In this document: positions 8,665 through 19,807 of the stretch, piece after piece
How the letters are laid out: each line of letters begins with the position of its first letter
Position numbering within the stretch: the first letter of the stretch is position 1
Origin: Bacteroidota bacterium
GTDB taxonomy: Bacteria; Bacteroidota; Bacteroidia; Bacteroidales; UBA4417
Assembly (NCBI GenBank): GCA_037142075.1
Contig: JBAXBJ010000006.1
Coordinates: forward strand, 25,266-89,265
Direction of reading: 5' to 3'
Length of the DNA stretch: 64,000 bases
Made by a program: the position numbers and the translations under genes
The notes under the pieces: model-generated
Database searches by the model: none
Told to the model about the DNA's origin: nothing
Seen by the model: only the letters and a program-made list of their open reading frames with translations

Positions 8665-11631
8665 ATGAATAAATTGATTTTTTTGTGCTTTTTTCCCCAT
8701 GTGTGGTTTACCTTAACATTGCATAGTCAGGGTATTGGCCGGTACCAGGCAGAAGAATTTGACTTGGCCCACAAAGCCGGTGTCCCGGCCGTTTACAGCA
8801 TGTTTCAGGATACAACCGGTGTAATTTGGTTTGGCTCAACCAATGGAATATATAGGTACGATGGTTCCCGGATATTTGAGTTTGATGCCGAACAGAAGAA
8901 ATTATTAGGCAAAACAAATTATACTTTTTTAGAGGCAAAAAACGGGGATGTACTGATAGGCAGCGATTTCGGGATTTGCAGGTACAACATACATGAAAAC
9001 ACAGTTAAACTGATTGTCACTATCGATAGGGTGTTTCACAATCGCAGCGGGTTCTCACCAGTTTGTTTTGATGATAAAGGTAATTTGTGGTTCGTGGCTT
9101 CGGGCAAAGGAATCGGATGGTACGATGGTCGAAAAGTTTCATGGTTTGAGAATCCACCCATCATTCATCCAGAATCAATCGACAAACTAAACGACGCATG
9201 CTACGACAGTAAAACTGGCAATGTGTACTTAAGCAATTATTATGGAAATGTATCAGCCATTTTTAACACAAAAATCCGTTCACTAACATTTGATGCATTA
9301 TCCGCTACAGCTACATTCCAACTACTAAACAACGTTTTATACAGAGTCAAACTCGATAGCATTCGTACTTCTAATCTTCTGACAGGAGAGCAAAAAGTGT
9401 TTGGTGCCACAATGAGGAAAGAGTTGGTTAATAATTTTATGTACTCAAAATCCGTCATTATTGATGAAGAATGGCTCTGGATTTCGTTGCGCGACGGGAT
9501 AAGGCCTTTTAACTACCACAGTCAAAAGTTTGGCAACGCGTTCGGTTTCGAAGGCGATACCAAAAGTTCTCTCTTAATGCATATTTCGGAATTATTCAAA
9601 GACAAGGAAGGGAATATCTGGGTTTGCACCGAAACAAACGGGATTAAGATTCTGAACCAGTTTCAATTAAAGCGATTTCAGTATTTAAGAGATTCCGGCA
9701 GTGCAAATAACATTATAATGGACATTGAAACTGTAAACGACAGCCTGTTGTTAGTATGCCCTTTGGTGGAAACACCGCAATTGGTTAAGATTTTTACAAA
9801 CGAATTTACAGATATAATTCCTAAAAATTCTGTAGCGAGCAGTTCGTTTAATACAGTGAGGGTAAACAAGTCATACATTCTGATTGTAAAGCAGAACGGG
9901 GAAGCTTACACCTTCAATTCATCAACTCTAAAGTTGAAACGACTTGTGATGCCTGACGCTTCTATTGGTAAGGTAATAAAAGCATCTCAGCCCAATACCG
10001 TTTTTATCTACAACGGCTCTGATTTAAAACTGTGTAATTTCGAAAATGAAGATTTAAAAGTTTTGAAATCGCTTGCCCTGAATTTTTCTTCCGAAAGTAT
10101 TTTATACAATCCATTCAAAAATGAAATCCACATCAGCAACCAGGAAAAAAGCTGGGTAATTGATGGTGAAACTTTAACTAAAATAAGTGAGCAAAAGCCT
10201 GTTATCGGGGCATTTATGGATAATTTCTGGAATAAGGACAAAACATTATGGCTCGCAACGCGATCAGGCCTTTTGCACTACAACATTAAATATCAGCTTA
10301 TTGAATCGTTCAATACAGGTAACGGGCTAAATAACGACGTGGTTTATGCCATCCAGCCAAATCACGACAGTACAAAGTTATTCCTGAGCACCAACCTGGG
10401 AATCAGTTGCTTTACCATTGCATCAAAAACTTTTCAAAACTACACACCTTCCGATGGCCTTTCGGAATCGGAGCACAACGGGGCAGCTTCGGCTAGCGAT
10501 GGAAAAGGCAACTACTATTTTGGCAACATCAAAGGAATTACAATTTTTAACGAGTCGTTCAATACAACTACAGCTACCAGGCCGTTATTAATTATCCAGG
10601 GAATTTACATTGACGATACTGTTTACAATAAACTTGTAAACGCAGATTTTATCAGGAGCATAGATGTTTTTCCTAAAAATACTGTCTTTGGAATTAACTT
10701 CAGTTTGCTAAGCACATCGGAACCTGAGAAGCTTATTTACAGCTATAAAATTGAAGGTATTGATAATAAGTTCCATCGGTCGAATGCAGCCACTGCAATA
10801 AGAATTTCCAAACCACGACCCGGCACCTATACCATAGTGCTCAGAGGCGAGATAGAAGGAGGCCTTTTTGTTGAAAAGCGCATTAAACTCGTAGTTCATG
10901 CTCCATTTTATTTTAAATGGTGGTTTTTAATTCCGGGCATTCTGCTCTTCCACACATTTGTATTTTTGATTATTCGCCGTATAATTAGGACTCGGTTGAG
11001 GAAAAAACAACAGGAAATGGAGAATGAACGCCGTTACTTTGAGCAGAAATCACAGATAGCCAGGGAGTTGCACGATAATGTGGGCGCCCGCCTCAGTATG
11101 ATGCTCAATACGGTAGATTGGATCGGCAAAAAACCGGTTTTGGAAATTACAGATCTGAATGAAATAAAGGAAAATACCAAAGCTGTTATTCAGGGCCTTC
11201 GCGATGCGATTTGGGTAATGGATAAAACTGAAATCACTGCTGAGGAATTATTTGATAAAATTAAATACTATTCCAACCAGGTCACAAGGAACTATCCTGT
11301 ACATTTGATCTTTAACGAAGTTACACACAAAGCGGTTGTTTTAAATACCACCGAGGCTTTGAACCTTTTTCGTATTGTTCAGGAATCGCTCAACAATGCT
11401 TTAAAATATTCAAATGCTGCGCAAATCGAAATTACGCTTAGTTACGAAGGTGAAAATGGAATTCGTATTGAAATTAAGGATAATGGCTCCGGTTTTGAAA
11501 CTGAAAAAGTAATACATGGGCACGGCCTTAAAAACATGCAGGCCAGGGCCGGCGAGATAAATGCAAATTTAAAATTGCAAAGTATTGTTAATGAGGGTAC
11601 GACAGTTACAATTACACTCTACATCGTTTGA
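8665..11631 (+). CDS. Sensor histidine kinase with large extracytoplasmic two-component-regulator beta-propeller/Y_Y_Y region and HisKA_3 + HATPase core
   Basis: 988 aa. Signal/TM at the N-terminus and propeller-type repeats (GVIWFGSTNGIYRYDG, GNLWFVASGKGIGWYDG, GNIWVCTETNGIKIL, LWLATRSGLLHYN). TM FKWWFLIPGILLFHTFVFLII. H-box ARELHDNVGARLS and G-box GHGLKNMQARA. Confidence 0.85.
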   Translation: MNKLIFLCFFPHVWFTLTLHSQGIGRYQAEEFDLAHKAGVPAVYSMFQDTTGVIWFGSTNGIYRYDGSRIFEFDAEQKKLLGKTNYTFLEAKNGDVLIGSDFGICRYNIHENTVKLIVTIDRVFHNRSGFSPVCFDDKGNLWFVASGKGIGWYDGRKVSWFENPPIIHPESIDKLNDACYDSKTGNVYLSNYYGNVSAIFNTKIRSLTFDALSATATFQLLNNVLYRVKLDSIRTSNLLTGEQKVFGATMRKELVNNFMYSKSVIIDEEWLWISLRDGIRPFNYHSQKFGNAFGFEGDTKSSLLMHISELFKDKEGNIWVCTETNGIKILNQFQLKRFQYLRDSGSANNIIMDIETVNDSLLLVCPLVETPQLVKIFTNEFTDIIPKNSVASSSFNTVRVNKSYILIVKQNGEAYTFNSSTLKLKRLVMPDASIGKVIKASQPNTVFIYNGSDLKLCNFENEDLKVLKSLALNFSSESILYNPFKNEIHISNQEKSWVIDGETLTKISEQKPVIGAFMDNFWNKDKTLWLATRSGLLHYNIKYQLIESFNTGNGLNNDVVYAIQPNHDSTKLFLSTNLGISCFTIASKTFQNYTPSDGLSESEHNGAASASDGKGNYYFGNIKGITIFNESFNTTTATRPLLIIQGIYIDDTVYNKLVNADFIRSIDVFPKNTVFGINFSLLSTSEPEKLIYSYKIEGIDNKFHRSNAATAIRISKPRPGTYTIVLRGEIEGGLFVEKRIKLVVHAPFYFKWWFLIPGILLFHTFVFLIIRRIIRTRLRKKQQEMENERRYFEQKSQIARELHDNVGARLSMMLNTVDWIGKKPVLEITDLNEIKENTKAVIQGLRDAIWVMDKTEITAEELFDKIKYYSNQVTRNYPVHLIFNEVTHKAVVLNTTEALNLFRIVQESLNNALKYSNAAQIEITLSYEGENGIRIEIKDNGSGFETEKVIHGHGLKNMQARAGEINANLKLQSIVNEGTTVTITLYIV

Positions 11632-11635
11632 TGTA
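11620..11635. promoter_or_regulatory. 7-2-7 palindrome TACATCG-TT-TGATGTA (copy 1 of 3), candidate NarL/LuxR-type operator
   Basis: Read directly. It overlaps the kinase stop codon (11629-11631) and lies about 35 nt upstream of the response-regulator ATG. It shares the word CTACATC(A/G)TTTGATGTATT with 14713 and 18178. Confidence 0.5.
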
Positions 11636-11670
11636 TTGCATCATCTTACTTCACTACCGAATTTTGGCCC

Positions 11671-12339
11671 ATGATAAAAATAGCTATTGTTGACGACCGC
11701 GATCACGTGCGCGATACCCTTGAAAACAGGTTGCAGTATACCAATGAGATCAGGGTGATACAGACCTCGTGCAATGGCGAAGAGTTTTTAACTTATATGA
11801 AGTCCACCCAGCCGCTCAGCCAGCCCGAAGTGGTGATTATGGACATTGAAATGCCTGTTCTAAACGGAATTGATACGGTGGCAACAGCCTCAGTTTTGTA
11901 TCCGGATGTAAAATTTATCATGCTTACCGTATTCGATAGCGACGATGCCATTTTTAATGCCATCAAGGCCGGTGCGCATGGCTATTTGTTAAAGGACGAA
12001 GACACCGACACAATTATTGAGCACATAAAACTGGTTGCCGATGGCAAAGGAGCCGTGATGAGCCCGGCTATTGCCCGCAAGGCGCTGGATTTACTGATGG
12101 GAAAGAGTTTCAAAGCCGAAACCACTAATGCAACAATAAAGACGGATACAACCCTTACCGAAAGAGAAATTGCCGTGATGAACTGCCTGGTAAACGGGCT
12201 TGATCATAAAAGCATTTCGCAAAAACTTGATATCAGCCCGGCCACGGTGCGCACTCACCTGGCCAATATTTATAAAAAGTTACACGTTAGTTCCAAATCG
12301 CAGGCGGTGGGTCTTGCGCTTAAGAGGAAATGGTTTTAA
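11671..12339 (+). CDS. Response regulator, NarL/LuxR (GerE HTH) family
   Basis: 222 aa. The receiver domain has IAIVDD...VVIMDIEMPVLNG...MLTVF. The C-terminal LuxR-type HTH reads LTEREIAVMNCLVNGLDHKSISQKLDISPATVRTHLANIYKKL. Confidence 0.9.
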   Translation: MIKIAIVDDRDHVRDTLENRLQYTNEIRVIQTSCNGEEFLTYMKSTQPLSQPEVVIMDIEMPVLNGIDTVATASVLYPDVKFIMLTVFDSDDAIFNAIKAGAHGYLLKDEDTDTIIEHIKLVADGKGAVMSPAIARKALDLLMGKSFKAETTNATIKTDTTLTEREIAVMNCLVNGLDHKSISQKLDISPATVRTHLANIYKKLHVSSKSQAVGLALKRKWF

Positions 12340-12625
12340 GAAGTAGGTTGGTGTTTGTAATGAATATTCTCAGTTTGTTGTTTGTATCGGCACCGATAGC
12401 AAATCAGCGCCAGAGGGAGGGGAAGATATAAATATGCTAATTGCGGCAAGCGCATGAAAATAAAATGCGTGGCAACTAAGATATCTCGTTGAACAAAAAA
12501 CGGGATAAAACCGTACATTTTAAAATCCCATATCCAGATCCCAAGAGAAAACCATGAATAATTAGCACCTTTAAATCAAGTAAAGCAATGATTTACAATG
12601 CTGATTGATGTTGGGGATTTATAAT

Positions 12626-12653
12626 CTGAAACCTTGAGCCTGAAACCTGAAAC
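12626..12653. repeat. Four degenerate tandem heptamers CTGAAAC/CTTGAGC/CTGAAAC/CTGAAAC
   Basis: Read directly in the spacer between the convergent genes ending at 12339 and 12700. Confidence 0.8.
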
Positions 12654-12699
12654 TTAGAATATCACTACCTACCCCGTTCGAAGTATAACTCTTGCCTTT

Positions 12700-13704
12700 C
12701 TAAGGTTTAACAAAAATCGAAAATGCTAACGCATGTGGTTCTACTCCATTCAGATTTGTTACTAACCCGTTTTTCCAATATTTGGCTGTAAAACTGTAAT
12801 TAGGCCAGTTGTCTTCGTATCCTGCAACATAAATATCATTCCCTAAAAGGAACATAGAACTTGCTATGGCAGAATGTAATGGTGAGGAAAGCTTTACCAT
12901 GACGCCATTTTTCCAATAACCTGCATCATTGCCATCATTTCCTGCCACATAAACATCATTGTCTTTGACCAAAATAGTGGTTGCCATGGATGAGGCTGTT
13001 CCATCTGTAAGGTTTACAACAACTCCGTTTTTCCAATACCTGGCCGAATAAGAAAAACTCCAGGTATGATCTTCCCAACCAGCTACATAAACGTCACTTC
13101 CTGAAACACAAATAGAAGTTGCCACTGTTTCGATTAATCCATCGCTTAAAGCAATAGCTTTGCCATTTTTCCAATACATGGCGACTGAACCTTCAAAACC
13201 TGCCACATAAACATCATTCCCCACAACACAAATGGCAGAAGCACCTGCTCCTTTTTTCCCATTTGTGAGGTTAATCCCTGTGCCATTCTTCCAGTATTTG
13301 GCTCTTGTTGACTCGTAATCTGCTAAGACGGTACCTGCAGTATAAACATCTTTCCCCGAAACCCAGATTGAAACTGCAGACCCGGAATGTGGTTCGCCTG
13401 TAAGTTTTGTTACATTGCCATTTTTCCAGAGCGCGGCATATTTAACACCATTCCAGAAGGCCGCACCGGTAAAATACAAATCATTTCCTGAGGCCCAAAC
13501 AGAATGTACATCATAAAAATGATTAATGGTATCATGCAGGATAACAGCCGAATCGTTGACCCAATAGGCATCTTCCAAGTTATTAATATACCCGGCCACA
13601 TAAACCTTTGTACCGGTCGACGGAATTACCTCTGTTTTTTCATCTTTCCTGCAACTTAATACGCAGAATAGCAATAGCGATAATGGAAACAAAAACTTTT
13701 TCAT
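12700..13704 (-). CDS. Lipoprotein built from about 7 YWKNG repeats (probable beta-propeller), function unknown
   Basis: 334 aa. Lipobox LSC at MKKFLFPLSLLLFCVLSC. Repeating unit ...D(V/I)YVAG...(A/K/R)YWKNG....L about every 40-45 aa (AYWVND, ALWKNG, KYWKNG, MYWKNG, RYWKNG, GYWKNG, KYWKNG). Confidence 0.75.
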   Translation of the reverse strand: MKKFLFPLSLLLFCVLSCRKDEKTEVIPSTGTKVYVAGYINNLEDAYWVNDSAVILHDTINHFYDVHSVWASGNDLYFTGAAFWNGVKYAALWKNGNVTKLTGEPHSGSAVSIWVSGKDVYTAGTVLADYESTRAKYWKNGTGINLTNGKKGAGASAICVVGNDVYVAGFEGSVAMYWKNGKAIALSDGLIETVATSICVSGSDVYVAGWEDHTWSFSYSARYWKNGVVVNLTDGTASSMATTILVKDNDVYVAGNDGNDAGYWKNGVMVKLSSPLHSAIASSMFLLGNDIYVAGYEDNWPNYSFTAKYWKNGLVTNLNGVEPHALAFSIFVKP

Positions 13705-13809
13705 ATCTTAAAACTAAATTTGCAGTTTGATTGATAGTAATATACCAATTCGAACTCTGGTGTCTTTTTCCCTGATGCGTGAAGAAAAGGCGGCCAAAAT
13801 TTCTAAAAA

Positions 13810-14124
13810 TTATATTTTCAACTCTATTCCGCTGCGTAAAATTTCAACCATAAATGGATTATCCGAAATGAAATCCTGTTTTGAGATTGGATGTGGTTCA
13901 ATACGGTTATCAATCTGAGAAGCTAACAGCATTAACCGAACTTGTGTATCAAACCTATCGCTATCGGTTAAATTATCTATAACCAAGGCAACATCAATAT
14001 CACTATCGGTATGTTGCTTGTTTTTGGCGTAAGAACCAAAAATAAATGCAGAAATTAAGCCAGGTTGCTGCTCGGCAGCCATATCAACAAATTTCCTTAC
14101 TGTGTGATTAATCCCTTTATCCAT
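13810..14124 (-). CDS. Nucleotidyltransferase (MNT-type) component of a HEPN/MNT toxin-antitoxin pair
   Basis: 104 aa. Minimal NTase motif FGSYAKNKQHTDSDIDVALV (G-S ... D-x-D). Overlaps the upstream HEPN gene by 28 nt. Confidence 0.8.
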   Translation of the reverse strand: MDKGINHTVRKFVDMAAEQQPGLISAFIFGSYAKNKQHTDSDIDVALVIDNLTDSDRFDTQVRLMLLASQIDNRIEPHPISKQDFISDNPFMVEILRSGIELKI

Positions 14125-14540
14125 AGTCTATACGATTTAAGTTCTTCAATCCAATGAGCGCAAAATTCAGGTGTACATGTCTTTTGAAAACTCAATTTAT
14201 AGTCATCATACCTTGCATTGATATTAAAAGCGGTAACTGTGGCAAAAAACAAACGTTGATCATCGTTTAATTCCAGGTTACATTTTTCAGCTAACCGAAG
14301 CAAATTGTGAATATAAGGTGGATAATCATTGATTGTTTTGACTACTAAAGCTTTTAGGAGTTTTTCGATCATTAAATGGCCAACAAACATGCTCCAACTG
14401 TATCTTCGAGTATCATACATGGCAACCATAGTTTTAAAATCATCATCTGAACTATCAATCCAGTATGTTAAAATTTTATCCCTATCGAATCCAGCATTTC
14501 CCATATCACAAAGGTATGGAATAAGTAACGATTGTATCAA
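14097..14540 (-). CDS. HEPN domain protein (partner of the MNT nucleotidyltransferase)
   Basis: 147 aa, all-helical sequence with the ...FNINARYDDY... segment typical of HEPN (PF05168-like) proteins. Paired with an NTase. The true start may be the internal MGNAGF at 14504. Confidence 0.7.
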   Translation of the reverse strand: MIQSLLIPYLCDMGNAGFDRDKILTYWIDSSDDDFKTMVAMYDTRRYSWSMFVGHLMIEKLLKALVVKTINDYPPYIHNLLRLAEKCNLELNDDQRLFFATVTAFNINARYDDYKLSFQKTCTPEFCAHWIEELKSYRLWIKGLITQ

Positions 14541-14712
14541 TGATTACCTTTTGCATTTTTAATGGTTTTAACTTCTCGAGGATAAATGAAGATTTCGCAT
14601 TTCAATGCGAGACATTTGCCGGACAGTATTCCCACATTACTGGATTGCTTCATGGTAGTTATTTTTTCAGAAAAGTATCATTCAGCTCATGCCTTTATCC
14701 CCTTCAACAATC

Positions 14713-14728
14713 TACATCATTTGATGTA
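14713..14728. promoter_or_regulatory. 7-2-7 palindrome TACATCA-TT-TGATGTA (copy 2 of 3)
   Basis: Perfect inverted heptamers with a 2-nt spacer, about 145 nt upstream of the ATG at 14874. Confidence 0.5.
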
Positions 14729-14873
14729 TTACACAGGAAATTTATCTCGTCTACTTTTGTCAAGAGTAAACGGACAAACGGTTATGAAGAATTAATAAAA
14801 TTCAGAACCCGGTTTTGTCAATTAAGAATTTAAAATAAATTTATTTCTGTCTTCATAGCCGCAACTTACTGAT

Positions 14874-16349
14874 ATGAAATTATTTACAACATTTATATTC
14901 CTCGTATTAACGATCTCGCTCTACGCCCAGCAGAAACCTGAGCCAATTACTTTACCCGGCGTTGCTTACCCGATACTGAGCATGAAGAAAAGCCCTTCTT
15001 CCAAATATCTCTTTCTTTCCCTGGCCGGTGGTCGCTTTTTGCTCTACGATATCAGCAAGGGGAATCTGAACGAAAACTCCACGCCATTATGGAAAAACTT
15101 TGATAGTAAGGGTTTTGCCATTGGCGGTGATGCTGAATTTTCGGATAACGAGAAGTACATCCTGGTAGTTGAACAAAATGCAATGTATGCCCGCGATAAA
15201 GCCAAAATCGAACCTTTCAGTATAAATGTGCTTGATGTTGCTACCGGGCAGGTAGTTTACGAAACAGAGGGAGTAAACAGTGCCCAGTTTTTAATCGACA
15301 ATTCAACCATTCTGCTTGCTGATGATGAGGGAGTTGCAACCTACAACTTGATAACCAAAACCAAAGGCGAAAAGAAAAAAATTGAGGCTTGCGAAATCGC
15401 CTGCCTCAACCATGCAGGAAATTTACTTTCCGCTTCGTATGATGCCGAAAGGAGCGAATTTAAAGATGAAGACGGAGCCGGGTTGAACAAAAAAGAGTTG
15501 AAAAATGCTGCAAAAAATAAAAAGCTGATCCGGTTTTATGAATATCCATCAATGAAAAATGCAGGAATCATAAATGAAGAAGTTGATGTGGTTTTCAGGA
15601 TGCAATATACCGCTGATGATAAATACCTCTTGTTTTTCAGCCGGACAAGGCAGGCGGAACATACGCATGTCAGTTTGCTTAATGGGCTCGATAAAGCAAA
15701 TGATCTCAACCAGTTTCAGCGTATCGACATCGGTGATTTCAGGGTAGATAATGCAAACTTCATCTATCAGACCAGCGAGCAAATGGCCAATTTTGATATC
15801 ACGCCATCATCAACTTTATTTTCGTACAACGACAACCGGGGACTTTTTGCCGGCAAACGAGAGGTGTATATTACCAATTTTGCTGAGCAACAGGTAATTG
15901 TCGGGAAATTTACTTTCCAGGGACGAGCAAAAACACGAAACCTGCACCAGGCCGCTTTTGCTTTTATTGATGATTCCATTTTGCTGGTTGCCAATGGTCT
16001 AAAGCTTACTTACTGGAATTTTGCGAAACTCCCTGATTATGTAGAGTATATTGAACCTGTGAACGAAAATGCCATACTCGACAATGCAATCGGGCAGCTG
16101 GACGACGACCTGCAAGACCCTGAAAGTTCGTTATCAAAATCAATTTCGAAACGCGCGATTACAGGCCTTTACCTGATGAATATAACCATTCAGAAAAGCG
16201 GTGAAGTGGTATCCATCTTTGCCCAATCGGACGATAAAACCAATATATCTATGCAAAATATGTTGAAAGATATAATTCTTAAATACAAGTTTGATGTTAC
16301 CGTACCCAAAAACGAACGATTAAAATTCACCTACACCTTTATCCTTTAA
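14874..16349 (+). CDS. Secreted hypothetical protein (signal peptide; probable beta-propeller N-terminal part)
   Basis: 491 aa. Signal peptide MKLFTTFIFLVLTISLYAQQ. No catalytic motif recognised. 19-nt gap to the next gene, so likely an operon. Confidence 0.6.
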   Translation: MKLFTTFIFLVLTISLYAQQKPEPITLPGVAYPILSMKKSPSSKYLFLSLAGGRFLLYDISKGNLNENSTPLWKNFDSKGFAIGGDAEFSDNEKYILVVEQNAMYARDKAKIEPFSINVLDVATGQVVYETEGVNSAQFLIDNSTILLADDEGVATYNLITKTKGEKKKIEACEIACLNHAGNLLSASYDAERSEFKDEDGAGLNKKELKNAAKNKKLIRFYEYPSMKNAGIINEEVDVVFRMQYTADDKYLLFFSRTRQAEHTHVSLLNGLDKANDLNQFQRIDIGDFRVDNANFIYQTSEQMANFDITPSSTLFSYNDNRGLFAGKREVYITNFAEQQVIVGKFTFQGRAKTRNLHQAAFAFIDDSILLVANGLKLTYWNFAKLPDYVEYIEPVNENAILDNAIGQLDDDLQDPESSLSKSISKRAITGLYLMNITIQKSGEVVSIFAQSDDKTNISMQNMLKDIILKYKFDVTVPKNERLKFTYTFIL

Positions 16350-16368
16350 ACCATTAAATCAAAAACTT

Positions 16369-18060
16369 ATGAAAAAGAAAACTCTGGCAATTGGTCTGTT
16401 TTTAACTCTTTCGGCATCCGTATTTGCTCAAAAAAATGAAGAAATGAAAACAGTTTGGGAAACCAAACTGAATTACGAATATGACCTTACCGGCCTGGAT
16501 GAAAACCTGAAAATAATCCACGGCAGCAACGACAAAAATTTCGGCGTGTTAAATGCCGAAGACGGAAGCAAGAAATGGGTAAGCAAATTCTCCGAAATTA
16601 GCGAAAACATCAAAAAAGTGGATCTTCAAATCCCGATGTACGAATCAAAGGCCATCTTCCTTTTCGACAAGAAAATGGGTAAAGACTTTATGGTAGTTGT
16701 GGATATCGAAACTGGCAAAATGCTTTGGAGTACCAGCAAATACCAAGGCATAGAAGACCAGGACGAAATTGTATATATCCCCGAAATGGATGCTTATGCG
16801 GTTGTTACAAAAGACGCGCTCACTATGGTGAAAGCACGCACCGGCGAAGAACTCTGGAGCACCAAAACCATGAATACACCTGTGGGAAGATATATTTACG
16901 ATAATGATGAGAAAACTATCACCATGGTAAACATGCCACGTACTTTTCTGGGAGCAATGTTAAAAGGATTTAAAAATCAAATTCTTAAAATAAATGTTAA
17001 AAATGGTGACGTAATCTGGGAACAAACCTACCGCGGGATGATAGAGAAAAAGGTAGTTAGCAGGGAACCTGTTGCAAAATTTATATTAGCCGAAGGAAAT
17101 AAGTTAATGTTACAACTTAATGGTTTACAGGTATTCGACTATAAAACAGGAAAACCACTTTGGAGTGCTACTTATGATGTAACTTTTGAGGAATTTGCCA
17201 GAGTAAAAACCCCTGGTCGGGTTAAAGCAAAAGGAGTTTATGGTGCCGTTGCAGATCCACTTTACGATGGCGAGTTTGTATATATCCTCGATTTTAAAGG
17301 CAAATCGTCACAATACCTTAAAAAATACGAAGTAAATTCAGGTAAACTCGTGTGGACTTCACCTGAGATAAAGGATGCAAGGGCAATTCCGGGTTTGTTT
17401 ATGGTTGATGGTGTTTTGCTTATGCAGGTTGGAGGTGCTGTTGAAGTGCAGGGAATAACGGTTCAAACAACATCAAACTCAAGTGGTACAACTACCACAA
17501 CCTACAAATCAATCAGTTATCAGAATGTAAAGCCCTACAATGTACAGGCATTTAATGTTGCTGATGGCAAGCAAATATGGGAAAGCGACCGCTTTAAGAA
17601 AGGCATTTCAAATATGTTCCTCAACGAGAAAGACCTTATAGTTTGCAGTGGTAAAGCATTGTACAACGTAGATTATAAAACCGGAGCCGAGAAATACGAG
17701 GTTTCGCTGGACAAGGACGATATTTCGCTGGCTGAAAAAATTATTGACCCGATTTCTCTGGGTGAAGACGTGAATAAAGACAATGTCATTATAGTGGGTT
17801 CAAAAGGAGTTAGTGCACACAATATGAAAACCGGGGCAAAAGTGTGGGCAAACAGGACCAAAACCGGCGATTTCAACGGCATTTACGGAACCACTGCATT
17901 TTACCAGACTGAAAGCGACGATCAGTTTGCCATTGATGTGAACTCAGGCAAAGGCACCTATTACAACGCACGGAAAGATTCGAAATCGGAATATTCGTCA
18001 GATGGCAATTACCTGTATGCATTCGAAAAGAAAGTCATAACCAAATTAGCAACGAAATAG
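16369..18060 (+). CDS. Secreted PQQ-like/BamB-like beta-propeller repeat protein
   Basis: 563 aa. Signal peptide ...SASVFAQ. A recurring G(K/E)x(L/I/V)W(S/E)... blade motif: GKMLWSTSKY, GEELWSTKT, GDVIWEQTY, GKPLWSATY, GKLVWTSPE, GKQIWESDR, GAKVWANRT. Confidence 0.75.
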   Translation: MKKKTLAIGLFLTLSASVFAQKNEEMKTVWETKLNYEYDLTGLDENLKIIHGSNDKNFGVLNAEDGSKKWVSKFSEISENIKKVDLQIPMYESKAIFLFDKKMGKDFMVVVDIETGKMLWSTSKYQGIEDQDEIVYIPEMDAYAVVTKDALTMVKARTGEELWSTKTMNTPVGRYIYDNDEKTITMVNMPRTFLGAMLKGFKNQILKINVKNGDVIWEQTYRGMIEKKVVSREPVAKFILAEGNKLMLQLNGLQVFDYKTGKPLWSATYDVTFEEFARVKTPGRVKAKGVYGAVADPLYDGEFVYILDFKGKSSQYLKKYEVNSGKLVWTSPEIKDARAIPGLFMVDGVLLMQVGGAVEVQGITVQTTSNSSGTTTTTYKSISYQNVKPYNVQAFNVADGKQIWESDRFKKGISNMFLNEKDLIVCSGKALYNVDYKTGAEKYEVSLDKDDISLAEKIIDPISLGEDVNKDNVIIVGSKGVSAHNMKTGAKVWANRTKTGDFNGIYGTTAFYQTESDDQFAIDVNSGKGTYYNARKDSKSEYSSDGNYLYAFEKKVITKLATK

Positions 18061-18080
18061 AAATATATTTAAAAAACGCG

Positions 18081-18108
18081 GGGTGAAGCCACAAGCTTCA
18101 CCCTTTTT
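18081..18108 (+). terminator. Rho-independent terminator after the 16369..18060 gene
   Basis: gggtgaagc-cacaa-gcttcaccc: 9-bp stem and 5-nt loop followed by ttttt. Confidence 0.85.
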
Positions 18109-18177
18109 CTTATAAAAAAAAGGATTGGCTTATCTGCTAAAAACAAGGAATACCCTTAGGATCATCTGCTTTTTAAC

Positions 18178-18193
18178 TACATCATTTGATGTA
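18178..18193. promoter_or_regulatory. 7-2-7 palindrome TACATCA-TT-TGATGTA (copy 3 of 3)
   Basis: Perfect copy located right after the terminator at 18081-18108 and upstream of the propeller fragment. Confidence 0.5.
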
Positions 18194-18379
18194 TTTAATG
18201 TTCAATTCCGCAGCAGTATCTTTGTGCCTGAAAAATTTCCGATACTGAAATTTTTTCTTCAGTTTTGAATATCATTCGTTTTTTATCCCAGGAAACTGCA
18301 TCAAAGGTGTAGTTTCCTTTTCTTTTGTCTGGATAGATTTTTCTTGCTTAAAAATTTCCAACAAAGATACAAGAAGTAA

Positions 18380-19021
18380 AAAACTAACTGGACAACTTAT
18401 ACGACTCAGAACCCTGGTATCCTTCATGGTAATATCAGCGCAATTGCCATAGATGAAAAGGGAACAAAATGGATCGGGTATATCTGGGATGATGGAGTCT
18501 CGGAATTTGACAGTGCCACCTGGACAGACTATATGCATACTGAGGGTATATCTTATAGACTCAGCAGTCAGCTGATAGACGTAGATCGACAGGGTAATAA
18601 ATGGTTTGCAGGTCGTGGTTATGGAATATGGAAATTTGATGGTATTAATTTCTTTTCATATAATACCGTAAATAAAGGTTCTCCATACGACCAAATAAAC
18701 GCATTATTTATCAATAGTATGGGAATTAAATGGTTTGGCGTTCAAAGTGGAGTTTTAAAACTGGAAGATACAACCTGTACCGCCTACAGCACCAGTAAAT
18801 TGGTTAATGATTATGTTTATGAAAAAACTGAAGATGCAAATGGTTATAAATGGTTTGCCACATTGGGTGGGGTATCAAGGTTTGATGTCACTAATTGGAT
18901 AAAATACACTAATTCAAATAGCGGATTAGTAAACAATAACGTTATCTCAATGGCCATTGATAAGAAGGGGTATAAATGGATGGGAACGCTAAATAGTGGT
19001 ATTTCAGAGTTTCAGAAATAA
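18380..19021 (+). pseudogene. Start-less fragment of a two-component-regulator-propeller protein (or a 162-aa product from the ATG at 18533)
   Basis: The frame is open from 18380, just after a TAA at 18377-18379. It already encodes propeller repeats (NISAIAIDEKGTKWIGYIWDDGVSEFD) before the first ATG/GTG/TTG at 18533. Later blades are GNKWFAGRGYGIWKFDG, GIKWFGVQSGVLKLED, GYKWFATLGGVSRFD and GYKWMGTLNSGISEF. I found no signal peptide or start upstream in any frame. Confidence 0.55.
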
Positions 19022-19111: not shown

Positions 19112-19807
19112 TTAGCCTCTCTTACTAATCTCCTTCAGAGCATCTCTCTTAAGCACTTCAATATCTTTATCCACAAGCCTGATCAGTCCATCCTGCTCAA
19201 ATCCTTTGAGCAGTTTCACAGTGCTTTCGGTGGATAAGCCAGCAAAATCGGCTATTTCCTTGCGCGTAAGAAAGCTGAAAACGCTTTCGTTATTGTATTG
19301 CACGGTATCGAGGTAAAGCAACACATCGGCTAGCCTGCCATGCATTTGCTTATACATCATACTGCGGATAGTGCCGTAAAGAGAACTGTCGTTTTCATAA
19401 TACCGGTTTATCAGGCCATAGGCGAAGCTGCCATTACTTTTTATCAGACCGGCGATAGCATCTTTTTCTATCAGGCAGGCCAATGTTTCTTTTACAGCGA
19501 TTGTCGAATAATCATATGTGTGCTTGCTGAAAGCAGCTGAAAGCCCAATAAATTCACCACCTCGGATCATACGCAGGTTGAAATCACGGTTCGAATCCCC
19601 GATAATGTACTGCCGCACCAGGCCTTCAACAACAAATAAAACGCTCGAAGCAAATGCTCCTTGTTTTGTGAGGCTTTCGCCTTTGCGGAACAGCACCTGA
19701 ATTTTGCTATCCTTCACCAGGTCAATCTCTTCGGGCAATAAATTTGCAAAACAGGGAGCTTTAAGCCCGCCAAGCACACAATCGTCAATTGCAGAATACG
19801 TTTTCAT
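19112..19807 (-). CDS. Crp/Fnr family transcriptional regulator (paralogue 1)
   Basis: 231 aa. cNMP-binding-like beta-barrel plus C-terminal HTH (TRKEIADFAGLSTESTVKLLKGFEQDGLI). Alignable end to end with 50108..50800. Confidence 0.85.
   Translation of the reverse strand: MKTYSAIDDCVLGGLKAPCFANLLPEEIDLVKDSKIQVLFRKGESLTKQGAFASSVLFVVEGLVRQYIIGDSNRDFNLRMIRGGEFIGLSAAFSKHTYDYSTIAVKETLACLIEKDAIAGLIKSNGSFAYGLINRYYENDSSLYGTIRSMMYKQMHGRLADVLLYLDTVQYNNESVFSFLTRKEIADFAGLSTESTVKLLKGFEQDGLIRLVDKDIEVLKRDALKEISKRG

Follow-up and report, generated by a model that had tools for sequence, protein, structure and literature searches.

Among the closest described systems is that of NarL in Escherichia coli, which activates transcription at ogt1052 from a single 7-2-7 site (two inverted heptamers 2 bp apart) centred at -44.5, 32 bp upstream of the -10 element, and whose 7-2-7 sites also lie at about -44.5 (napF) and -42.5 (yeaR) (PMC9314961, PMC4549865). 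In this work we analysed a 64-kb stretch of DNA from a Bacteroidota bacterium (contig JBAXBJ010000006.1, positions 25,266 to 89,265; hereafter the window) that carries three copies of a 16-base palindrome of the same geometry, close to the genes of a propeller-sensor histidine kinase and of a NarL/FixJ-family response regulator. The spacing of these copies to a promoter box and their conservation in related genomes led us to propose that the three palindromes are probably operators for a dimer of the adjacent regulator, from which it would activate transcription in a class-II-type manner.

The likeness to the E. coli NarL/NarP system comprises inverted TAC-initiated heptamers 2 bp apart, a regulator made of a receiver (REC) and a GerE domain, and a HisKA_3 kinase. 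The centre of the palindrome lies 31.5 bp from the promoter box, at a predicted -43.5, and thus resembles the NarL sites located at -42.5 to -44.5 and about 32 bp from the -10 element. On the other hand, the NarL heptamer is reportedly TACYYMT, a consensus attributed to Darwin et al. in 1997, and TACATCA fits it at only 5 of 7 positions, as position 4 is A and not Y, and position 7 is A and not T. Furthermore, the promoters here are not of the -35/-10 type but of the -33/-7 type that sigma-A(Bfr) reads in Bacteroidota, and the sensor is built of propellers and a Y_Y_Y domain, not of a nitrate-binding four-helix bundle, with no link to nitrate respiration genes.

Class II activation by LuxR and TraR proceeds from a lux box or tra box centred near -42. 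As in those systems, a GerE-type helix-turn-helix (HTH) dimer, predicted in our case, would sit on a palindrome of 16-20 bp that covers the upstream promoter element at a fixed distance; however, LuxR and TraR are ligand-binding one-component regulators with other box sequences, whereas the protein considered here would be a phosphorylated response regulator. VraR/LiaR and DesR, members of the NarL family from Firmicutes, are the best sequence matches of solved structure (E values of 4e-23 to 2e-20), and have a recognition helix of the type seen here (TVKTHVSNI or TVRNYISMI vs. TVRTHLANI). They constitute autoregulated envelope-related systems; they differ from the present one in their intramembrane-sensing kinases and in their operator sequences, and to our knowledge no leaderless internal promoter has been described for them. 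With respect to the sensor, tandem beta-propellers followed by Y_Y_Y and one transmembrane helix are shared with the Bacteroides hybrid two-component systems and with BguR. The hybrid systems hold kinase, receiver and AraC-type domain in one protein, whereas a separate GerE-type regulator is found here. In BguR, from marine Bacteroidota, the same sensor is joined directly to a GerE domain with no phosphorelay, and a conserved motif is predicted before its target locus (bioRxiv 10.64898/2026.01.10.698779). With its separate HisKA_3 kinase and separate NarL-type regulator, the present system would be the phosphorelay counterpart of BguR, and its targets, unlike those of BguR and of the hybrid systems, are not polysaccharide utilisation loci.

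An exact search located the three copies, all on the + strand of the window (Table 1). They share a conserved word of 20 nucleotides (nt), C-TACATC(G/A)TTTGATGTA-TT, and at each of them the two inverted heptamers are exactly 2 bp apart. At up to two mismatches only 0.09 matches are expected by chance in the window, and none of 100 shuffles got to 5. No fourth copy with up to two mismatches was found anywhere in the 64 kb, nor any weaker or half site (up to four mismatches) with a correctly spaced -7 box. Outside the 20 nt the flanks of the three sites are not homologous, as judged by an alignment of ±90 nt and by a repeat search, and a literature search with the motif string returned only unrelated primer sequences. 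These data agree with the first-pass annotation of this sequence, which had reported copies at 11620, 14713 and 18178, the first of them over the kinase stop codon, 35 nt before the ATG of the regulator and with one arm mismatch, and the second about 145 nt before an operon that starts at 14874. For whole-genome searches, the motif can be written as TACATCNTTTGATGTA, with up to two mismatches.

The Bacteroidota promoter consensus consists of TAnnTTTG at -7 and TTTG near -33, and this -33 motif differs inconsistently from species to species (PMC7366714); in Flavobacterium psychrophilum the -7 box spans positions -12 to -5 (PMC9723704). A sigma-A -7 box of this kind is present exactly 23 nt after each of the three palindromes, against a background for nAnnTTTG of 0.0019 per position and strand in the window. 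With the box placed at -12 to -5, the palindrome would extend from -51 to -36 relative to the predicted transcript starts, with its centre at -43.5; sites of class II activators are centred at about -41.5 to -44.5. The conserved TT(G) behind it falls at -35 to -33, where the -33 element (TTTG or TTG, about 19-21 nt ahead of the -7 box) belongs, and only ATTG, ATTT or ATTA are present at -36 to -33, all of them weak -33-like elements. In a set of 47 distinct sites, part of which came from loci retrieved by a pattern already containing the -7 box, TTTG is found at +27 to +30 in 44, the gap being fixed at 23 nt there, and the spacers between motif and box are completely diverged, with about 0.1 bit of information per position. 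A scan for sigma-70-type promoters gave 17 sites vs. 22.9 expected, which is uninformative in a phylum without -35/-10 promoters.

Comparison with other genomes ties this module to the two-component system. We compared the orthologous loci L001-L008 and L136 and 10 contigs of public metagenome-assembled genomes (MAGs), in which the kinase orthologs, 40-89 % identical, form a clean group. The motif precedes the regulator in every orthologous kinase-regulator locus examined, and nearly all of these loci have one or two more copies before neighbouring genes, some of them on the opposite strand and pointing at a divergent gene. Within the sequence fetched for this kinase-regulator family, every copy lies no more than a few kb from the two-component system. 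A scan of public genomes with the motif alone, one genome per species, returned at least 118 stretches; among the matches listed, all 20 copies beside a regulator or kinase ortholog have the -7 box vs. 3 of 106 located elsewhere, and the copies from other phyla are single and boxless. One of the three boxed copies found elsewhere, L081, belongs to an ortholog of the target operon of the window and comes from the same MAG as L016. A complete metagenome scan with motif plus -7 box yielded nine stretches, seven of them in recognisable family loci; the kinase-regulator-motif system is rare.

In three genomes, conservation upstream of the orthologous target operon is confined to the motif and the box. 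In more distant genomes the pair of genes forming this operon, encoding proteins of 491 and 563 amino acids (aa), is found away from the two-component system and has no motif; in one case a single 1.68-Mb contig carries both a motif-bearing system and, about 610 kb away, the pair without the motif. It is therefore the regulator, and not the target, that the motif accompanies. Membership of the 491-aa/563-aa operon as an obligate part of the regulon was considered and rejected, since its more distant orthologs lack the motif.

Table 1. Coordinates of the palindromes, promoter boxes, genes and terminators in the 64-kb window.
Feature	Coordinates	Strand	Sequence	Basis or remark
Sensor histidine kinase, 988 aa	8665..11631	+		Pfam, NCBIfam, hydropathy
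Site 1	11620-11635	+	TACATCGTTTGATGTA = TACATCG-TT-TGATGTA	One arm mismatch
-7 box, site 1	11659..11666	+	GAATTTTG	1 mismatch to TAnnTTTG; predicted start 11671
Response regulator, 222 aa, REC + GerE/LuxR HTH	11671..12339	+		Pfam, NCBIfam, PDB
Insert between regulator and target operon, three genes	12700..14540	-		Not under motif control
334-aa repeat protein	12700-13704	-		Part of insert
Nucleotidyltransferase (Polbeta/NTP_transf_2)	13810-14124	-		Overlaps HEPN gene
HEPN protein	14097-14540	-		Overlaps nucleotidyltransferase gene
Site 2	14713-14728	+	TACATCATTTGATGTA = TACATCA-TT-TGATGTA	Both arms perfect
-7 box, site 2	14752..14759	+	TACTTTTG	Perfect TAnnTTTG; predicted start ~14764
Target gene 1, secreted, 491 aa, signal peptide	14874..16349	+		No Pfam family
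Target gene 2, secreted, 563 aa, PQQ_2/BamB-like beta-propeller, signal peptide	16369..18060	+		Pfam PQQ_2 1.9e-23
Intrinsic terminator of the two-gene operon	18080..18104	+		10-bp stem, 6 G-C pairs, T tract
Site 3	18178-18193	+	TACATCATTTGATGTA = TACATCA-TT-TGATGTA	Both arms perfect; putative operator of a relic promoter
-7 box, site 3	18217..18224	+	TATCTTTG	Perfect TAnnTTTG; predicted start ~18229
Terminator hairpin	18290..18318	+		13-bp stem + T tract; -24.5 kcal/mol, z -3.9
Reg_prop-like frame	18386..19021	+		Translation; no start codon or signal peptide, first ATG 18533

The regulator has the features expected of a NarL/FixJ-family response regulator. Its receiver matches Pfam Response_reg (1e-20), and the acidic pocket with the phospho-acceptor Asp is present: D8, D9 and D58 can be aligned with the receiver of NarL, in which D59 is the counterpart of D58. 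The C-terminus matches Pfam GerE (6.6e-19, residues 161-215) and contains the recognition helix SPATVRTHLANIYKKLHV, which is near-invariant (SPATVRTH(L/M/I)…) among the orthologs of the regulator. These are 63-97 % identical to the regulator, which is far better conserved than the kinase. Full-length alignments place VraR, NarL, DesR and DevR as its best PDB matches. The NCBIfam matches are NarL/MctR/MadR-like and fall below every equivalog cut-off (119.6 bits for the NarL model, where the cut-off is 250), and the DNA-contact residues K188, V189 and K192 of NarL are replaced by R, T and A. Judged by these comparisons, the protein is a bona fide member of the NarL/FixJ family with a HisKA_3 partner, and not NarL itself. 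The likeness to NarL pointed out in the first-pass annotation holds for the 7-2-7 geometry and for the LuxR/GerE HTH class, and does not extend to the heptamer or to the contact residues; the palindrome would be a NarL-family site instead of a NarL site.

The partner kinase starts with a signal peptide, followed by extracytoplasmic Reg_prop propellers and Y_Y_Y, one transmembrane helix (residues 752-774), HisKA_3 and HATPase_c; Pfam detected neither a receiver nor an AraC domain in it. The matches of its transmitter in NCBIfam are of the NarQ/UhpB/LiaS type, all under the equivalog cut-offs. A protein of a "MAG: Bacteroidota bacterium" shows 100 % identity to the kinase, and the relatives of the kinase are labelled Bacteroidales, Paludibacter and Lentimicrobiaceae. 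The arrangement of kinase and regulator as a pair with a 39-nt gap is kept in most orthologous loci.

Taken together, these observations suggest the following scheme. The propeller-sensor kinase would phosphorylate the regulator, whose phosphorylated dimer would bind the 7-2-7 site and bring the sigma-A RNA polymerase to promoters whose -33 element is weak. At site 1 this would result in positive autoregulation through a leaderless mRNA encoding the regulator alone, and at site 2 it would switch on the operon of the two secreted beta-propeller proteins. The earlier proposal, in which the adjacent regulator uses the sites as operators to regulate its own gene and to control the propeller operon, gains strong comparative support from their presence at the same places in orthologous loci, from the box at 23 nt and from the linkage. 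The more specific version of the scheme, in which a NarL-family dimer at -43.5 replaces the weak -33 element of a Bacteroidota -33/-7 promoter and a promoter within the kinase end fires on the AUG of the regulator, we hold as possible and somewhat short of an even chance.

The stop codon of the kinase (TGA, 11629-11631) falls within site 1, and 35 nt separate the end of the site from the ATG of the regulator. In the orthologs, position 7 of site 1 is always G, and this G is, like the GA with which the box begins, a conserved peculiarity of the site; the box reads GAAnTTTG, or GAGTTTTG in one of them, and is followed by 4 nt (5 nt in L007) and the start codon, which is GTG in L008. The L007 locus is informative with respect to the position of this site: its palindrome is intergenic, 54 nt past the kinase stop, and retains the distance to the regulator start. 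As it is clear of the kinase reading frame, site 1 is anchored to the start of the regulator, and coding constraint on the C-terminus of the kinase (…YIV*) is excluded as its cause. The predicted transcript start coincides with the A of the regulator ATG, which would imply a leaderless mRNA, and site 1 would then be an autoregulated internal promoter yielding a leaderless transcript of the regulator only. In this window the kinase's own upstream region has no motif.

Several points weigh against this interpretation. The -7 box of site 1 is imperfect, with GA in place of TA. The TT spacer of the palindrome points the same way with respect to the promoter in nearly all sites compared, a constancy that is not expected for a symmetric dimer. 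Leaderless messages are infrequent in the phylum: about 3.7 % of the 5' untranslated regions (UTRs) of Bacteroides thetaiotaomicron are shorter than 10 nt, and 5.5 % of the mRNAs of F. psychrophilum are leaderless (PMC7366714, PMC9723704). Copies were counted in the 64-kb window, and distant members of the regulon or intragenic copies may occur elsewhere in the source genome. Finally, an operator beside the -33 element could equally occlude the RNA polymerase.

This last point leads to the main rival, that the same regulator uses the same sites to repress, by blocking the sigma-A RNA polymerase at the -33 element; at site 1, it could in addition act as a roadblock to read-through from the kinase, giving negative autoregulation. 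The geometry allows it, as -36 is the last position of the palindrome and the conserved TT(G) occupies the place of the -33 element, and E. coli NarL does repress from a 7-2-7 site at frdA (PMC4549865). However, that NarL site is located at -4/+6, and NarL sites at about -44 activate (PMC9314961, PMC4549865). A repressor would tolerate a variable placement, whereas the gap is exactly 23 nt in 44 of the 47 sites, at various genes and in various genomes; so strict a spacing at unrelated genes, and in genomes that have diverged, speaks in favour of a stereospecific contact with RNA polymerase, and therefore of activation over occlusion. The weakness of the -33-like elements (ATTG or ATTT) is likewise what is expected of activator-dependent promoters, and we consider repression unlikely.

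The remaining explanations have still less in their favour. That some other factor binds the palindrome, with a chance linkage to the two-component genes, is very unlikely. The candidates would be the Crp/Fnr-family protein (cNMP_binding and HTH_Crp_2) encoded on the - strand at 19112-19807, about 1 kb from site 3, or an alternative sigma factor for which the palindrome is a promoter element, and in L003 a gene for an extracytoplasmic function (ECF)-type sigma factor does lie upstream of the kinase; yet neither the Crp/Fnr nor the ECF gene is found in other orthologous loci, where the kinase-regulator pair is always present, the motif conforms to neither TGTGA-N6-TCACA nor TTGAT-N4-ATCAA, and the downstream box is a sigma-A consensus and not an ECF-type -10. 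If the palindrome were a dispersed repeat, a mobile-element end or a site of recombination (att or inversion), this would account for the fact that sites 2 and 3 are identical 20-mers which bracket the 3.4-kb two-gene operon as direct repeats, an operon that has differing genomic contexts in other genomes. Nevertheless, homology stops at 20 nt, so that an extended repeat or mobile element was rejected; no recombinase is conserved nearby, copies of the operon located elsewhere lack such repeats, and the sites in other loci flank unrelated genes with the -7 box at 23 nt, while copies from other phyla (among the matches listed) are, as noted, single and without it. This makes a repeat or recombination site barely credible. 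We give equally little credence to an RNA hairpin, such as a terminator or processing site closing the kinase mRNA: the 16-mer can fold back on itself (6-bp stem, 4-nt loop) and the kinase gene has site 1 at its 3' end, but the fold reaches only -5.3 kcal/mol with no U tract after it, sites 2 and 3 precede the predicted starts and would hence not be transcribed from their own promoters, and the sequence is invariant instead of covarying and matches no Rfam family.

Returning to regulation by the adjacent NarL-family protein, site 2 is separated by 145 nt from the ATG at 14874 and appears to be the promoter of the two propeller genes, with a predicted 5' UTR of about 110 nt. It is kept upstream of the orthologous operon in L038, L081 and L136/L131, where the surroundings have diverged, and the terminator of the operon is conserved in L136. 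The 563-aa gene is paired with the 491-aa gene in every locus examined. About 50 homologs of the 491-aa protein were found, all labelled hypothetical; its AlphaFold2 model (predicted local distance difference test, pLDDT, of 85.8; predicted template modelling score, pTM, of 0.84) gave WD40 propellers as the top Foldseek matches (E of about 1e-12), and suggests a WD40-like beta-propeller with a small C-terminal alpha/beta domain. The idea that the targets resemble the sensor of the kinase thus survives at the level of the fold, and not at that of the family, as they are WD40-like and PQQ/BamB-like and not Reg_prop propellers. The insert that separates the regulator from this operon is absent from L136, where the operon directly follows the regulator. 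Within the insert, the nucleotidyltransferase and HEPN genes form a toxin-antitoxin-like pair.

Site 3 begins 74 nt past the terminator hairpin of the two-gene operon, and a comparison with L136 helped us to interpret it. Positions 18081-18196 of the window align with L136 17244-17356, terminator first and then the site, and in L136 the homologous site precedes a 166-aa gene. A second hairpin lies at 18290-18318, about 60 nt after the predicted start of site 3, and the segment 18263-18326 containing it can be aligned both with the terminator that immediately follows the 166-aa gene of L136 and with an element of similar kind in L004. Since this hairpin is homologous to the terminator behind the L136 gene, the 166-aa gene has been deleted in the window, and site 3 is, on this alignment, the putative leftover promoter of that gene, now running into the old terminator. 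The 166-aa gene (a weak Riean_0653/DUF6252-like match) is the most widely conserved target in the relatives, usually followed there by a Peptidase_C1–DUF4384 gene and a WD40–caspase/CHAT gene. The frame at 18386-19021 has a Reg_prop match below the cut-off (E 0.0018), resembles the kinase only at the level of repeats, and is probably a gene fragment and not a target. The first-pass annotation was right in locating site 3 just after the terminator of the operon and less so in assigning it to this fragment: a conserved terminator stands between the two, and the L136 counterpart drives the 166-aa gene. As a separate observation, the same hairpin, CAGGAAACTGCATC..GGTGCAGTTTCC, is found behind different regulon genes (window 18290-18318, L136 ~18118-18150 and L004 ~15500-15530).

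The local regulon of the relatives (L003, L006, L007, L004 and L008) includes proteins with Peptidase_C1-DUF4384, WD40-caspase (Peptidase_C14)/CHAT-TPR and Por_Secre_tail (type IX secretion) domains, and none of these were found in the window; the cargo genes of the system are highly variable from lineage to lineage. Some copies of the motif outside the family are worth recording. In L130, a 13.8-kb contig without a two-component ortholog, motif and box (10448-10494) lie inside an open reading frame of 3690 aa on the opposite strand; this is the only match to motif plus box within a coding region. A perfect copy at L035 2294-2311 (Bacteroidia MAG SJ304) stands beside a kinase paralog 33 % identical, and from this copy the operator may be common to a wider paralogous group. 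An identical 18-mer, TACATC(A/G)TTTGATGTATT, occurs in MAGs of Oscillospiraceae (L017, L048, L052, L095, L110 and L116) and of Bacilli (L034, L073, L099, L103 and L122). These Firmicutes copies have conserved flanks of their own, 'acaaaa…ttgtcaa' and then ATGATGTA downstream, or 'aaaaaa…tttatttttttaaatcatcta', lack the Bacteroidota -7 box, and are probably operators or repeats of other systems.

In summary, a two-component regulator that controls its own gene from palindromic sites nearby is a textbook arrangement, and this ordinary gene switch does not change any concept. Its operator is, however, unusually cleanly defined for an uncultured bacterium, and the palindrome is very probably the docking site of the regulator. 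In Bacteroidota, whose primary sigma factor reads -33/-7 and not -35/-10, few transcription-factor operators and hardly any activator geometries have been defined. The present system provides a sequence-exact operator, a fixed 23-nt spacing rule and a compact local regulon, whose members are secreted beta-propeller proteins in the window and, in relatives, type-IX-secreted proteins and peptidases (C1 with DUF4384, caspase/CHAT-like); it therefore offers a test bed for how a NarL-type regulator recruits the Bacteroidota RNA polymerase, and could become a portable inducible promoter part once the signal of the kinase is known. A curiosity open to test is the predicted leaderless transcript, autoregulatory and limited to the regulator; if true, the cell could amplify the regulator separately from its kinase, by way of a leaderless mRNA.

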